Of a stretch of 64,000 bases of DNA, positions 1-6,124 are shown in pieces. Position 1 is the stretch's first letter. Every line of letters starts with the position of its first letter. The notes under the pieces were generated by a model. The model was given only the letters and a program-made list of their open reading frames with translations. It was not told the DNA's origin and did no database searches. The translations under genes were made by a program, and so were the position numbers. This stretch comes from Flavobacteriales bacterium (lineage in GTDB: Bacteria > Bacteroidota > Bacteroidia > Flavobacteriales_F > PHOS-HE28). Location of the stretch: the NCBI GenBank assembly GCA_016704485.1, contig JADJAA010000002.1, forward strand, positions 239,591 through 303,590. The letters run 5' to 3'.

Positions 1-2165
1 TAGGAAGTACCCGCATTGTTCGTGATAGTGTCCGCGCCGATGAGGAGGCCATCGGGCCCCGTGCCGTGCACGAGCCGCACCGCGTAGCTGAAGGGTCCTT
101 CGATGCCGTAGAGCGATAGGATGAAACGCTCCAATCGTCCGCTGAAGGCTGGGGTGAAGGACTGCCACATAACGGTGCCTGGGGAAGCTGTGCCTTGTTC
201 GCCGGAGCTATAGCTGCCAAAGCCGGTGTTCTGGTCGGTGAAGGTGATAGTGTCCAACACTTCGTCGAAATAGTACCTGGCCATGTGCGCACCAAGGCCA
301 AGGGCCAATGGGTTAAGCAGGCTATCACGAATACCATCCACCGTGATGTATCCGCCGAACGGTTCGCCGGTCAGGATGAAGGGTTCAGCATTTATACAGA
401 GCGGCGCGTTGATGGCGGGAATACTGAGTACGGGTGCGGCGACCGTGATGATGGATAGTGTGGTGTCCGTGCAACCGAACGCGGTGTTGATGTAAGTGAG
501 TTCATGGGGGCCTTCACCGAGGGAGGCGGGTAAGAAACCATTCGTATTTACCCCTTCGATCCAGATCTCGGCATCCGGTGAGAAGTCATTGTCGCCGAAG
601 AGCCACACGGTATCAACCTCGCTCACGCAATAGGCATCGGCGAGGTTGAGCATGTAATGCGGCGGCACTTCGTAAAGGGAGTAGTAGCGGATAGCACTCT
701 GGCACGGTGGTAGGGCATTGACCCATGTGCGGAAGGCGGCATCGTGGTATGCATCCACGCTACTCGTGCCACGGGTGTAGTCGTAATAGGCCCAGTTGGT
801 ACCGAAGCTCAGCACTTGCCGGAAGGCATGTTCAGCGGTGAGTTCCACCGTGTACATGGTATCCGCGTTCCATGGAACCAGACTGCTGACGGGGAAGGTG
901 ATCCAACTTGTATCCATGATCGCGGGCGACGCGATCATGCTTTCGTGAAGGAGCACCGCACCGGCACCAACGCCGTGATATACACGCAGCGTGAAGTTGT
1001 TCGGCAAGCTATCGTGCAGCATGAATTCCACTTGCGTCAAACGACCGGTCTCGCCCGCGCGCACCGTTTGGCGAATGCTGTCCAAGAGCGCGTAACTGTA
1101 GGTATAGTTGCCGTAGTAGTCATACAGGGTGTACGACTGGTCGATGTGTTCCGAGCTATCCAACGGGAGGTCATTGGGTGAATACGTCACGGAATATTCG
1201 CCCGGAGTGTTCGGCGCATTCATCAACGTGGTGCCGCTCACCAAGGGTCCATCAAAAGTGCCGGGGCCAGGCGCAGCGGAGAGTTGGATGGAAGGATGGT
1301 TATGGCATTGGCGTGTGTCGAACGCATCGATGGCGATCGACACGGGATCTGAATGGAGATCGGTCTTCACGAAGTCCAGCACGTACTGCATCACCTGCGT
1401 TTGGCCGGTTGTAAAGAGGTTGTTGTCGCAGGGCGAATAGCACATGATGTTCGTTGTCTGCGGCATGTAGGGATCACCGTTCGCGTCGGTGCTGGTGCCG
1501 ATGTACGTGCAGTTGGCATAGTCGATCATCCCGGCCAATCCAAGGTTGGGATCTGCAGGCGTGTCGCAGATCTGGTCACCGCCGATGGTGCAGTTGGAAC
1601 CGTCCACCAGCTCGGCTTCGAACAATGCGTCGTGTGTATGCGGAAGGCCGAGCAAGTGACCGACCTCATGGGCCAGCACACGCGGGTTATCCGCGCCTTG
1701 CAGGAAGACCAAGTTGCCGAAGTTGAAGCCCGCCAAACCGTTGGGCAATAGTGCCACGTAAACCAACGTGACATAGCCCGGTTCGTAATACGGGTTCAGG
1801 ATCTCCGGGTCGAAGTTCCACAGCGCATAGAGGTTGTCGTTATCCACTACCTGCACCGGCCCACACAGCTCGAATTGGATGTCCGTGTTGTTCTGTGCGT
1901 AAAGCGCGTTCGTGCCATCGAGGTCGCGCTGCACCGCGCTGGTCGTTACAGCATCACCACCGGGCCCGCTCAGTGAGGCAATGATCACCTTCACCTTCAG
2001 GTAGCGCGTTCCACTGCGGCCGGGGTGATAGTTACGCGCTGCTTGAATGATTTCCGGGGAAACGGACGAGGTGCTGTTGCACCAGATACCGCTGGTCTGG
2101 GAGTGGAGCAAAAGCGGAAAGAGACTTTGAAGAACACCGACCAGGGCGAAGATGAGAAAGCGCAT
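1..2165 (-). CDS. Secreted metzincin zinc metalloprotease (M43 pappalysin/cytophagalysin-like); 3' end runs off window start
   Basis: Continuous reverse-strand frame from ATG at 2163-2165 (MRFLIFALVGVLQSLFPLLLHS signal peptide) down to position 1. Contains HEVGHLLGLPHTHD = HExxHxxGxxH metzincin zinc site. Absent from the ORF track because no stop lies inside the window. Plus-strand ORFs 195-1751 are antisense artefacts. Confidence 0.75.
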   Translation of the reverse strand, partial: MRFLIFALVGVLQSLFPLLLHSQTSGIWCNSTSSVSPEIIQAARNYHPGRSGTRYLKVKVIIASLSGPGGDAVTTSAVQRDLDGTNALYAQNNTDIQFELCGPVQVVDNDNLYALWNFDPEILNPYYEPGYVTLVYVALLPNGLAGFNFGNLVFLQGADNPRVLAHEVGHLLGLPHTHDALFEAELVDGSNCTIGGDQICDTPADPNLGLAGMIDYANCTYIGTSTDANGDPYMPQTTNIMCYSPCDNNLFTTGQTQVMQYVLDFVKTDLHSDPVSIAIDAFDTRQCHNHPSIQLSAAPGPGTFDGPLVSGTTLMNAPNTPGEYSVTYSPNDLPLDSSEHIDQSYTLYDYYGNYTYSYALLDSIRQTVRAGETGRLTQVEFMLHDSLPNNFTLRVYHGVGAGAVLLHESMIASPAIMDTSWITFPVSSLVPWNADTMYTVELTAEHAFRQVLSFGTNWAYYDYTRGTSSVDAYHDAAFRTWVNALPPCQSAIRYYSLYEVPPHYMLNLADAYCVSEVDTVWLFGDNDFSPDAEIWIEGVNTNGFLPASLGEGPHELTYINTAFGCTDTTLSIITVAAPVLSIPAINAPLCINAEPFILTGEPFGGYITVDGIRDSLLNPLALGLGAHMARYYFDEVLDTITFTDQNTGFGSYSSGEQGTASPGTVMWQSFTPAFSGRLERFILSLYGIEGPFSYAVRLVHGTGPDGLLIGADTITNNAGTS

Positions 2166-2560
2166 GTGTTCTATCACTGTCGATGGTGCTGGAGTGACGC
2201 GAAGATGCGGAAAGGAGTTGTCCGTTCGTGCTGCTGTGAGGAAAAGAATTTCAGGGCCACTTTACAACTCAACAAAGTCTACTACGCTTTGGTGGGGACC
2301 GTGCGGTCAAGACCAAGAACGCAAGGTCCTGAAGCGGTACCCTTGCGGAGAGTTAGTACACATGCGTGACGACAGTAATAAGGAAGTATACGAACAGTGA
2401 GCTGCAAAGGTTATCGATCACCTGGGCCAAGCAGCCGGAAAATGTACCTCGCAAGCTCCAGCGGGATGCGTGCGATCCATGGCCCAACTAGTAGCCCATT
2501 GCCTACAAGTAAGTGGTATTTAACAATGCGAGAAACATTTTGTTAAAGGATCACGCCATT

Positions 2561-2982
2561 TTCTTCTTTGTCTTTTTCATTTTCTCCTTTGTACTTGCGG
2601 CAAGTTCCTTTGTCTTTTTCATTTTCTCCTTTGTACTTGCGGCAAGTTCCTTTGTCTTTTTCATTTTCTCCTTTGCACTTGCGGCAAGTTCCTTTGTCTT
2701 TTTCATTTTCTCCTTTGTACTTGCGGCAAGTTCCTTTGTCTTTTTCATTTTCTCCTTTGTACTTGCGGCAAGTTCCTTTGTCTTTTTCATTTTCTCCTTT
2801 GTACTTGCGGCAAGTTCCTTTGTCTTTTTCATTTTCTCCTTTGCACTTGCGGCAAGTTCCTTTGTCTTTTTCATTTTCTCCTTTGTACTTGCGGCAAGTT
2901 CCTTTGTCTTTTTCATTTTCTCCTTTGCACTTGCGGCAAGTTCCTTTGTCTTTTTCATTTTCTCCTTTGTCTTTTTCATTTT
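2561..2982. repeat. 42-bp tandem repeat, ~10 copies (internal 21-bp periodicity of TCCTTTGT)
   Basis: The unit ttctcctttgtacttgcggcaagttcctttgtctttttcatt repeats head-to-tail. The only variation is T/C at gtacttgcgg versus gcacttgcgg. The 42 bp = 14 codons, so every frame gives a 14-aa periodic ORF (e.g. MKKTKELAASTKEK on the minus strand). Confidence 0.95.
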
Positions 2983-3375
2983 GGCAAAGCACTTTTTGGT
3001 TTTGCCCTCGCAATTGGCGGTGCTCTGCCCTCAAACCGGCGTTCTTCGCTGCCAAATAGCGTCGGCACGCGCCGTTTCGACCGGATTACTTCGTTTGCAG
3101 TGGGATCTTCATTTAACAGCCCCTCCGCGCCGTAAAGGAGGCTCCCGATTTCGAATACTTCAAGTCGGGACGGTCGGAGCTCACGATGGATCTTTCGGCG
3201 GAGTGGTCGGCTGGATGGCCGGAGGTCGGAATGACGATCGTGCCAGCCCCAACAGGACTGTGTTCCCTCTTGATCTATACGAAGAATGGGCTCCGTTTGG
3301 TGCATTTTGCGAAGGTGTAATGGGGAATAGGGTGGTGTAAGTGACTATGGGTCAGGCTGCTAAATGTGGCCCTAT

Positions 3376-3704
3376 GTTGACCTCATGTTCATGAACGTTG
3401 CCTCCCATGTTCATGAAGGTTGCCCTCACTGTTCATGAAGGTTGCCCTCACTGTTCATGAAGGTTGCCTTCACTGTTCATGAAGGTTGCCCTCACTGTTC
3501 ATGAAGGTTGCCCTCACTGTTCATGAAGGTTGCCCTCACTGTTCATGAACGTTGCCCTCACTGTTCATGAAGGTTGCCTCCCATGTTCATGAACGTTGCC
3601 CCTCATGTTCATGAAGGTTGCCTCCCATGTTCATGAACATTGCCCCTCATGTTCATGAAGGTTGCCTCCCATGTTCATGAACATTGCCCCTTAGGTTCAT
3701 GAAC
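3376..3704. repeat. 22-bp tandem repeat array A (~15 units, consensus GTTGCCCTCACTGTTCATGAAG)
   Basis: Direct head-to-tail 22-bp units. Variants ctccca/ccctca/ccttca and gaag/gaac alternate in places as a 44-bp higher-order repeat. 22 is not a multiple of 3, so the array is non-coding. Confidence 0.95.
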
Positions 3705-3968
3705 ATTGCCCACCATGTCATACGACATTGCCCACCATGTCGACTGTAGTTGCCCACCATGTCGACTGACGTTGCCCACCATGTCGACTGACGTTGCCCA
3801 CCATGTCGACTGACATTGCCCACCATGTCGACTGACATTGCCCACCATGTCGACTGACATTGCCCACCATGTCGACAGACATTGCCCACCATGTCGACTG
3901 ACGTTGCCCACCATGTCGACTGACATTGCCCACCATGTCGACTGACATTGCCCACCATGTCGACTGAC
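3705..3968. repeat. 22-bp tandem repeat array B (~12 units, consensus (A/G)TTGCCCACCATGTCGACTGAC)
   Basis: Contiguous with array A. Units share the (G/A)TTGCCC head, but the tail changes to ACCATGTCGACTGAC. Transitional units are visible at 3683-3748. Confidence 0.95.
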
Positions 3969-4209
3969 ATTGCCCACCACTACGACTGTAGTTGCCCACC
4001 ACTACGACTGTAGTTGCCCACCACTACGAGCGTAGTTGCCCACCACTACGACTGTAGTTGCCCACCACTACGACCGTAGTTGCCCACCACTACGACTGTA
4101 GTTGCCCACCACTACGACTGTAGGTGCCCATCACTACGACTGTAGTTGCCCGACACTACGCTTGTAGTTGCCCACCTCGACGACTGTAGTTGTCCAGCAC
4201 TACGCCTGA
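3969..4209. repeat. 22-bp tandem repeat array C (~11 units, consensus GTTGCCCACCACTACGACTGTA, decaying toward 4209)
   Basis: Contiguous with array B. The last units become progressively degenerate: ggtgcccatcac, gttgcccgacac, gttgtccagcac. Confidence 0.9.
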
Positions 4210-4499: not shown

Positions 4500-6124
4500 G
4501 ACCTTGATCACATTATGGGGAAGGGAATCCCGTGCGAGTTGGGTACACGGCCCGGGCCACATGGGTGATACTTCCAGAGTATTGGCTTGGCCCGGGTGGG
4601 TAGACAACGCAGGGTCCCGAAGCGGAGACTTATTCTATGTTAAAAACAAGCATAACGTAAAGTTTTTTTCAGGCATTAGGACTCCAGCCATGAACCAAGG
4701 ATGAGGCCCACCCTTGATCCATGTTGTTGGCCGTTGCCATCATGCCTATCCCTGTTAGGTTGCTCTTCAGCAGAGCCTGCTTCCGTTTGGACACGACATA
4801 CGAAGTACGGCAATCCGATCAATTCTGCACTAATTGCCGCTGCTCATAGGGCCGGTTGTTGCGGATCACGGCGCAAACACAATGGATGATCTTATTACGG
4901 ACCGCATTGACAACCAATATCGGCTTCTTGCCTTCAGATACTTTGCGTTGGAAGTAGACCTTTAATTCTCCTTCGCGTTGCACGTTGGCAAGTGCAGCCA
5001 TGTGGAGCATGGTCTTAAGGATCTTGTTGGCTTGATGTGATACTTGCGTTCGTCCGCGAATACTGCTACCAGAACTACGCTCAAATGGAGCTACACCAGC
5101 ATGACATGCCAGTTCGCGTGGGTTCGTAAATCGATGGAAGCCATCGGTGAGCGCGATCAAATAGCTCGCTAATTGTGGGCCTACGCCGGGGATCGTGAGC
5201 AACAGGTTGTATTGTTCACTGGTTATATCATCGGCTTTGATCTGTGCCATGATCAGTTGCTCTACGCGTATCACGGCACGATCAGAAGCAACGATCAAAC
5301 GCTTGTCAAGTTGGTCGAACGCCTTTTTAATGTCCTTGTCCATGTAGCGGTTCAGGTCCGAGAGATGCTTCTTGTACATGGCTCTGACGCGAACCAAGTG
5401 TTGCCTACGTGTGAGCAGGTGCTTGAGTTTATCGAGCTTGAGGTTCTGTGCTGTGAACAAACGTGTTTTCTCTCGAAATGTGCGTGCGTATTGCGCGATC
5501 CGCAAAGCGTCCACTTTGTCGTTCTTCACACGCTTGATGCCCATGCTCTTTTGTATATCGAGCGGGTGCGCCAACCAAGCATGCCAGTGCTGCTCCACGA
5601 TCAGATTAAGCAACATCAACGTATAGTGCCCGGTAGGTTCCAAACACACTAGGCATTCCCCGGTGTCAACTCCGTATCGTTTCTTCCAGCTGTTCATTAG
5701 CGTCATTACGGCTGTACGACCATTGCTTACTTGCAAGCTCTCCAAGTGAACACCGTGTTCATCGAGCAATGCGAAATCCAAGGTTGCACTGCTCACATCG
5801 ATACCGATCCAATGCTTCATTTTCGTTTACTTTGAGGTTCAACAAATGATCGCTGTTGAGGCTGAGCGACAGGTCCGATGCTCCATGACTCTAATAGGCC
5901 CTTACGCCTAGCATTCTATCCGAGCCTTAGACCTGAGAAAGCCAGAGGTACCCATAAGTCTCTTAGGGGCTTTAACCCTAGCTGCGGAGTTGGTTCACCC
6001 CTGGCTTGGCTCAGTTCTCTTCAGTGATCTATCGACATCTAAGAAAATAGTTCCTTAGTGACGATGCAATACTAGAGCCTGCATAGGGTTAGTGGTCAAG
6101 TGGGCGTGAAGGCTCCGCGGCATC
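4500..6124 (-). mobile_element. IS110-family insertion sequence, approximate extent including non-coding flanks
   Basis: The transposase is flanked by about 300 bp of structured, GC-rich non-coding DNA on each side. The family has no terminal inverted repeats, so exact ends cannot be set by eye. Confidence 0.35.
4819..5820 (-). CDS. IS110-family transposase (DEDD N-terminal domain + IS116/IS110/IS902 C-terminal domain)
   Basis: 333-aa ORF with ATG start. N-terminus WIGIDVSSATLDFAL and C-terminal LLTIPGVGPQLASYLIALTDGFHRFTNPRELACHAGVAPFERSSGSS are both hallmark IS110-family transposase motifs. Confidence 0.85.
   Translation of the reverse strand: MKHWIGIDVSSATLDFALLDEHGVHLESLQVSNGRTAVMTLMNSWKKRYGVDTGECLVCLEPTGHYTLMLLNLIVEQHWHAWLAHPLDIQKSMGIKRVKNDKVDALRIAQYARTFREKTRLFTAQNLKLDKLKHLLTRRQHLVRVRAMYKKHLSDLNRYMDKDIKKAFDQLDKRLIVASDRAVIRVEQLIMAQIKADDITSEQYNLLLTIPGVGPQLASYLIALTDGFHRFTNPRELACHAGVAPFERSSGSSIRGRTQVSHQANKILKTMLHMAALANVQREGELKVYFQRKVSEGKKPILVVNAVRNKIIHCVCAVIRNNRPYEQRQLVQN

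Follow-up and report, generated by a model that had tools for sequence, protein, structure and literature searches.

A 42-bp tandem array in a Flavobacteriales genome is probably a non-coding orphan duplicate of a helically phased array class found upstream of FN3-like genes

A 42-bp tandem array near the left end of the window, by which is meant the whole 64,000-nucleotide stretch of Flavobacteriales DNA that was analysed, raises the question of whether such a repeat encodes a protein, belongs to a mobile element, acts as regulatory DNA or has no function. TRF detected a period of 42 with 9.6 copies, 98% matches and 0 indels at 2566-2970; with the partial end units, as read by eye, the array extended from 2557 to 2992. 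Each unit consisted of a T-rich half, TCCTTTGTCTTTTTCATTTTC, and a palindrome-bearing half, TCCTTTGYACTTGCGGCAAGT, and TCCTTTGT recurred every 21 bp along the array. These results confirmed an earlier description made from the DNA letters alone (the sequence-only reading), which had reported a 42-bp x10 repeat with 21-bp phasing whose copies were identical but for one T/C site; the sole variable base was the Y that separates TTTGTAC from TTTGCAC, in the unit order T T C T T T C T C. The units were contiguous, without the unique spacers of a CRISPR array. The features of the locus are as follows.

3..2177, minus strand: M43-type metallopeptidase gene (Pfam PF05572)
2519..2560, minus strand: proximal flank, shared with locus B at ~82% identity
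2561..2982, no strand assigned: 42-bp tandem array of ~10 units, supported by TRF, by the sequence and by a second genomic copy that is 96-98% identical
2593..2941, no strand assigned: nine perfect 13-bp palindromes, ACTTGCgGCAAGT, with starts at 2593, 2635 and so on to 2929; proposed binding sites
2983..2992, no strand assigned: distal edge, ending ..CATTTTGGCAAAG, common to locus B; the homology of the two copies stops here
2993..3238, no strand assigned: unique right flank, 96.8% conserved in a related strain to ~3238, where a variable island starts

The sequence-only reading had observed that repeat ORFs run through the array on both strands, and had allowed that a lysine-rich repeat on the minus strand might be a real small protein. 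Four such ORFs were present, the quoted repeats among them: 275 aa and 163 aa on the plus strand, and 170 aa and 142 aa on the minus strand. It is scarcely to be expected, though, that the lysine-rich protein (142 aa, minus strand 2979..2551, repeat KEKMKKTKELAAS(T/A)) or a plus-strand repeat ORF is made. The lysine-rich ORF is open, with an ATG and a stop codon, in both genomic copies of the array, where its last Ala codon differs synonymously; its period is a multiple of 3 and its start context is A-rich. However, the frame that reads GCC GCA AGT ACA AAG in the window reads GCC GCA AGT ACA TAG in the orthologous array of a sister species (G027), in which no minus-strand ORF of at least 90 aa spans the array, and no strand or frame was consistently open with a start codon over 30 loci. 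Variation between units was block-wise and showed no codon periodicity (mean entropy of 0.74/0.61/0.73 over the three phases, anchored on the GCSGC core), and each unit variant, when translated by eye in the lysine-rich frame, altered a residue. Furthermore, related arrays had periods of 41, 43 and 22/44, and the 142-aa ORF had no homologue at E≤0.01 among the proteins searched. The promoter search around the minus-strand ORF was equally negative: there was no sigma-70-like site and no terminator in or beside the array, and no promoter of the Bacteroidota type (TTTG-N17-23-TAnnTTTG) near it.

Because of the G027 stop codon, the lack of a codon pattern, the periods that are not multiples of 3 and the absence of a protein homologue, the array is most likely non-coding as judged by sequence comparison; neither a frame kept in orthologues nor codon-like variation, the marks of a tandem-repeat protein gene, was found. 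Nor did the window contain any Rfam match or any tRNA.

A second copy of the array was identified in the same genome at C1:2508107-2508418 (locus B), with 7.4 units at 96-98% identity and with first and last partial units identical to those of the window array (array A). Beyond the arrays, homology between A and B reached no further than 45 bp at one end (~82% identity) and 12 bp at the other. The arrays are more alike than the shared flank, which points to a duplication of some age and to later gene conversion between them. Several short-read contigs terminated within arrays A or B. Locus B was syntenic in two other species, G025 and G027. At this position G025 carried the same array, with 5 palindrome units, and G027 carried a 21-bp x16 array, TTTACCTATGTACTTGC[CG][GA]C[GA]; the conserved part was TGTACTTGC-S-GC. 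As the G027 orthologue repeats truly every 21 bp, the 42-mer consists of two diverged 21-mers. The copy at locus B is ancestral, and the window copy is its duplicate. The earlier proposal that the 21-bp sub-period matches the helical phasing of the neighbouring 22-bp arrays held in one part only: 21 bp is the ancestral period and about two helical turns, but the neighbouring arrays repeat every 22 bp, have no sequence relation to the window array and occupy a segment where a related strain has other DNA.

The array at locus B lay 300 bp upstream of a 205-aa FN3-like gene. The model of its product (pLDDT 89) predicted three long N-terminal helices followed by an FN3 domain. Public names for the protein, all from Flavobacteriales MAGs, were only 'fibronectin type III domain-containing' or 'hypothetical'. 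The gene was present in 102 of the 132 genomes of the order, at up to 23 copies per genome, and in 13 of the 121 genera sampled across the class. Searches with the helical domain returned nothing from Pfam, NCBIfam, a PDB fold search or the ESM Atlas, and no recognised DNA-binding fold. A phage origin of the gene was considered and rejected, as PHROGs and BFVD matched the FN3 domain only and the family had no relatives in IMG/VR.

Other genes also occur around locus B. A conserved single-copy gene of 185-200 aa (MCLKELGVELP...CGCC), divergent from the FN3-like gene, was observed at L002:1960-2563 and at B-type loci of other species. It had no Pfam or NCBIfam match and was preceded by a palindrome, ACCC-N6-GGGTATTG, that was present at ~10 other sites in the genome. 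Its product, considered as an array binder, was modelled as a generic beta-sandwich (best Z of 6), which speaks neither for nor against binding. The region G000 C1:2502000-2515600 (L008, L009) contained ~16 small genes on one strand, mostly encoding membrane proteins and each followed by a ~76-bp repeat (80-98% identical); the 3' part of the FN3-like gene was also present a second time as a fragment, with the repeat, at 2515561-2515852. This run of genes looks like a cassette-like stack.

Locus B proved to be one of many. A paralogue of the FN3-like gene (34% identity; C1:1191876-1192484) had a different 21-bp x19.7 array 250 bp upstream, and TRF found an upstream array with a period of 21, 42, 63 or 84 at 36 of 52 FN3-like loci (20/30, and 16/22 among more distant paralogues). 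Most of these arrays started 230-340 bp before the ATG; they were 230-455 bp in length and had roughly 5 to 20 units, typically ~15. FN3-like loci of other families in the class had array periods of 21, 42 and 41, and two further loci of the same genus had periods of 43 and 22/44. The unit sequence was wholly different between loci, with TGTAC and TGC-S-GCA kept in many units of the B clade. No gene neighbour other than the FN3-like gene itself was conserved in the 22 FN3 loci compared. The whole 4.36-Mb genome contained only about ten arrays with a period of 15-45 and at least 3.5 copies, so the association of arrays with FN3-like genes is beyond chance.

Between the array and the ATG of the FN3-like gene lay a conserved leader of ~200-300 nt, as seen at L002:1204-1505 (G000 C1:2507805-2508106) and at the matching loci L013-L042. 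Its elements were a pair of TGTTAAA boxes, GGTTATCAACA, and the helix GGCCAGC/GCCGAGGCC, whose apical insert varied in length. The first TGTTAAA box was 17 nt from the last repeat unit in the three native loci that were read (L013, L019 and L021). Compensatory changes backed the helix, which had CG in 20 of the sequences and UA in 4, and Rfam gave no match at the FN3 loci or their leader. On these sequence grounds, the leader is a candidate new cis-regulatory RNA.

Distal to the arrays lay a 19-bp motif, CTATAGTAGTATGGTATAG (≤2 mismatches), which in this genome was confined to arrays B (4x, as a 23-bp tandem), C (3x) and D (once). Similar TATA/CCATAC motifs occurred beside arrays of other species.

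G000 C1:2508462-2508550, 1588817-1589023 and 1193235-1193253: 19-bp motif sites

The window array resembles this class in its period, which is 2 x 21 bp, and in its homology to a genuine FN3-locus array, including both edges. It differs in its setting, as an array of the class would lie 230-340 bp before an FN3-like gene and have a structured leader and TGTTAAA boxes. No FN3-like gene was found in the window, nhmmer detected no leader of the FN3 loci at the window copy, and the 19-bp motif was missing from the window. The proximal flank contained an inverted pair of TGTTAAA sequences, at 2519-2525 (minus) and 2541-2547 (plus); of the boxes typical of native loci, only the first was retained. 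Because the FN3-like gene and leader are missing, the window copy is termed an orphan. On balance, we consider it probable that the window array does not code for protein and that it is an orphan copy, duplicated from a member of a conserved class of cis-regulatory arrays with helical phasing.

A second orphan locus was observed in the same genome at G000 C1:1588324-1589569 (L011). There a 21-bp x21.7 array, which carries the 14-bp palindrome AAGTACATGTACTT, was paired with a 22-bp x18 array, and the latter was 147 bp upstream of a WYL/WCX regulator gene that heads a Type I RM / radical SAM defence operon. The window shows the same combination, with a 21/42-bp array next to 22-bp arrays.

The window array lies upstream of the M43 peptidase gene, which starts 384 bp away and has the orientation of the FN3-like gene at native loci; this neighbour is possibly influenced by the array. 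The M43 orthologues of 11 other species had no array upstream, from which it follows that the array is an addition in the window lineage. When an empty site was sought, the intergenic DNA upstream of M43 was not alignable in other species. The M43 upstream region also contained, at window 2288-2366, a short repeat of 63-80 bp; five copies of it, with 77-79% identity, occurred at C1:848.6-855.4 kb, near the FN3 paralogue at C1:846412.

Since the gene, the leader and the distal motif are missing, the window copy may have no function. It could then be a minisatellite relic of a duplicated FN3-gene control region, changed by slippage or unequal exchange and by gene conversion with its parent, a reading that we regard as somewhat unlikely. 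The array-free M43 orthologues fit it, as does a copy number that varies between near-identical strains. Against it, the array and 250 bp of right flank were retained in three independent samples, the orientation and distance relative to M43 are like the native arrangement, all nine of the nine palindromes are perfect, and the class overall is clearly maintained.

A metagenome scan recovered the window locus in other samples. On a 98-kb metagenome contig with flanks 99.9-100% identical, the array had 5.6 units (T T C T C) compared to 9.6 in the window; the window array equals that of the contig plus one block duplication of 168 bp (4 units). Unequal exchange in the DNA could account for this difference, as could the collapse of a perfect 168-bp repeat during assembly. 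The block duplication, together with the greater identity of the two arrays than of their flank, bore out the earlier view that the copies had undergone recent expansion or homogenisation.

To the right of the array the sequence comprised 250 bp of unique DNA, 22-bp arrays at 3376-4208 and an IS110 element at 4609-6092, beyond which was a Lamassu-like operon with a methyltransferase. Pfam analysis of ten ORFs up to 16.9 kb away identified M43 peptidase, IS110 transposase, AAA_23, aldehyde dehydrogenase-MaoC (paaZ), DUF4886 and glycosyltransferase. The IS110 element was one of five copies that were at least 99% identical (C1:776271, C2:337780, C2:884355, C2:1041874 and the window), and a 61-bp segment of it, 4738-4798, occurred at seven further sites with ~82-84% identity. 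A related strain (L080, contig Ga0138256_10003604) kept the array and the 250 bp to its right at 96.8% identity; at L080 6100-10960, however, a 224-aa ORF and a TerD/vWA/TerB-like cluster stood in place of the 22-bp arrays, the IS110 element and the Lamassu-like operon. The left border of the island is thus near window 3238, ~250 bp beyond the array, and from this replacement the window array belongs to stable DNA that flanks the variable island, the 22-bp arrays to the part that varies.

Proximity to an IS110 element and an acquired island is one reason to consider a role in a mobile element. The array might serve an integrated plasmid or ICE as its sopC-like centromere or its iteron origin, or it might be a BrickBuilt-like minisatellite MITE that moved here by transposition; we judge such a role to be very unlikely. 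Two copies with short shared flanks at unrelated sites would also fit it. However, the island boundary is not at the array, the arrays of the class have a fixed place before the genes of a chromosomal family and diverge together with them, and that family was not found in IMG/VR.

In anatomy the array is very near sopC of the F plasmid, where a 43-bp direct repeat occurs 12 times and SopB binds the 16-bp inverted repeat that each copy contains (PMC3177203). The two share ~10 head-to-tail units of 42-43 bp with one palindromic site each, four helical turns apart on one face. The window array differs in being chromosomal with no sopA/sopB-like genes nearby, and its class is tied to FN3-like promoter regions, with many arrays per genome. 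Thus, the ~43-bp repeats with an inverted repeat were present, but Pfam found no adjacent parA/parB, and no ParA/ParB domain at all, among the ten neighbouring ORFs. An iteron origin fared no better, as there was no Rep-type domain in the neighbours and arrays of the class are many per chromosome.

In parC, the centromere of plasmid R1, and in comparable centromeres of type II/III, rows of iterons lie upstream of the par operon and are also its operator. Phased repeats directly before a promoter, with a bound complex that also regulates the gene, make this the closest analogy for the mechanism proposed below; the window class has neither an NTPase partner nor a plasmid.

BrickBuilt of Porphyromonas gingivalis, a minisatellite/MITE with 23-nt tandem repeats, leader and tail flanks, 19 copies and promoter activity (PMC4596501), provides a Bacteroidota precedent for the mobile-element reading. 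The likeness extends to intergenic, spacer-less repeats of about two helical turns in 1 to 23 copies, to conserved flanks and to a proposed effect on transcription of neighbours. However, BrickBuilt places one repeat sequence beside unrelated genes, whereas in the present class the position at one gene family is kept and the sequence turns over. Furthermore, spacer-less intergenic repeats of the ~23-nt type were found, but many dispersed copies were not: the window sequence has two copies per genome as against 19, and by eye its shared flanks (45 bp and 12 bp) had no terminal inverted repeats.

Promoter-associated variable tandem repeats are known as contingency loci or VNTRs. The window array is like them in having a strain-variable copy number upstream of a gene; it is unlike them in that the units are long (21/42 bp), the arrays are ~300 bp from the start codon and not between promoter hexamers, and their length is fairly constant over loci. 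Taken as analogies, sopC is the closest of these systems in anatomy and BrickBuilt the closest in phylum and habit. A literature search found no description of such arrays, and the class is apparently undescribed.

How might the orphan duplicate and its parent class work? The second half of each window unit contained the perfect 13-bp palindrome, and ACTTGCGGCAAGT occurred nine times at exact 42-bp spacing (2593-2941), where shuffles expect 0. The palindrome length in the window unit was significant compared to shuffled units (P=0.002). Over the class, 12 of 27 non-redundant arrays reached a palindrome P≤0.2, with ~5 expected, and in about half of the arrays the palindromes were without significance. 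The arrays probably serve as a row of protein-binding sites.

Two other explanations were tried and rejected. The window 13-mer had 14 occurrences in the genome, all confined to arrays A and B, and its 9-mer core was at chance frequency elsewhere (66 observed, 66 expected), which argues against a dispersed regulon. Intrinsic DNA curvature, by an approximate wedge-model path calculation, gave a mean end-to-end ratio of 0.83 for arrays and 0.80 for permuted units, and the window array was predicted to be straight (0.985).

The mechanism that we propose for the class, of which the window array is probably an orphan duplicate, starts from the place of the native arrays. Within this genus, as within several further families of the class, they lie just distal to the TGTTAAA boxes and structured leader, before the FN3-like gene. 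In the window copy, the nine identical palindromes are exactly four helical turns apart and so share one face of the DNA. By analogy with the systems above, we infer that a putative dimeric protein binds them cooperatively along the array, at the level of DNA. The bound array would form a nucleoprotein platform that sets transcription of the adjacent promoter region. Its copy number would shift by unequal exchange, and gene conversion would keep the two genomic copies alike. The window array has no FN3 gene or leader, and it stands next to a variable defence island, with the M43 gene downstream of it; it may be inert or co-opted.

Because the units differ between paralogous loci, one common factor cannot read all of the arrays. 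Each FN3-like paralogue could form a private recognition pair with its own array, the helical N-terminal domain binding its own palindromes, but this is a speculative and doubtful extension. If it is true, there would be up to ~20 orthogonal, fast-evolving autoregulatory filaments per genome, and orphan arrays such as that in the window would be decoys or would subject other genes to control by the parent paralogue.

For annotation, these results carry the warning that an ORF called through an array of this kind, whichever its strand, is most likely an artefact. The window feature alone is modest and probably non-coding; it led to a class of arrays in uncultured Flavobacteriales-like Bacteroidia in which position, period and length are conserved but sequence is not, which is unusual among bacterial regulatory DNA. 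This class offers a testable entry to the control of a gene family that has no assigned function.
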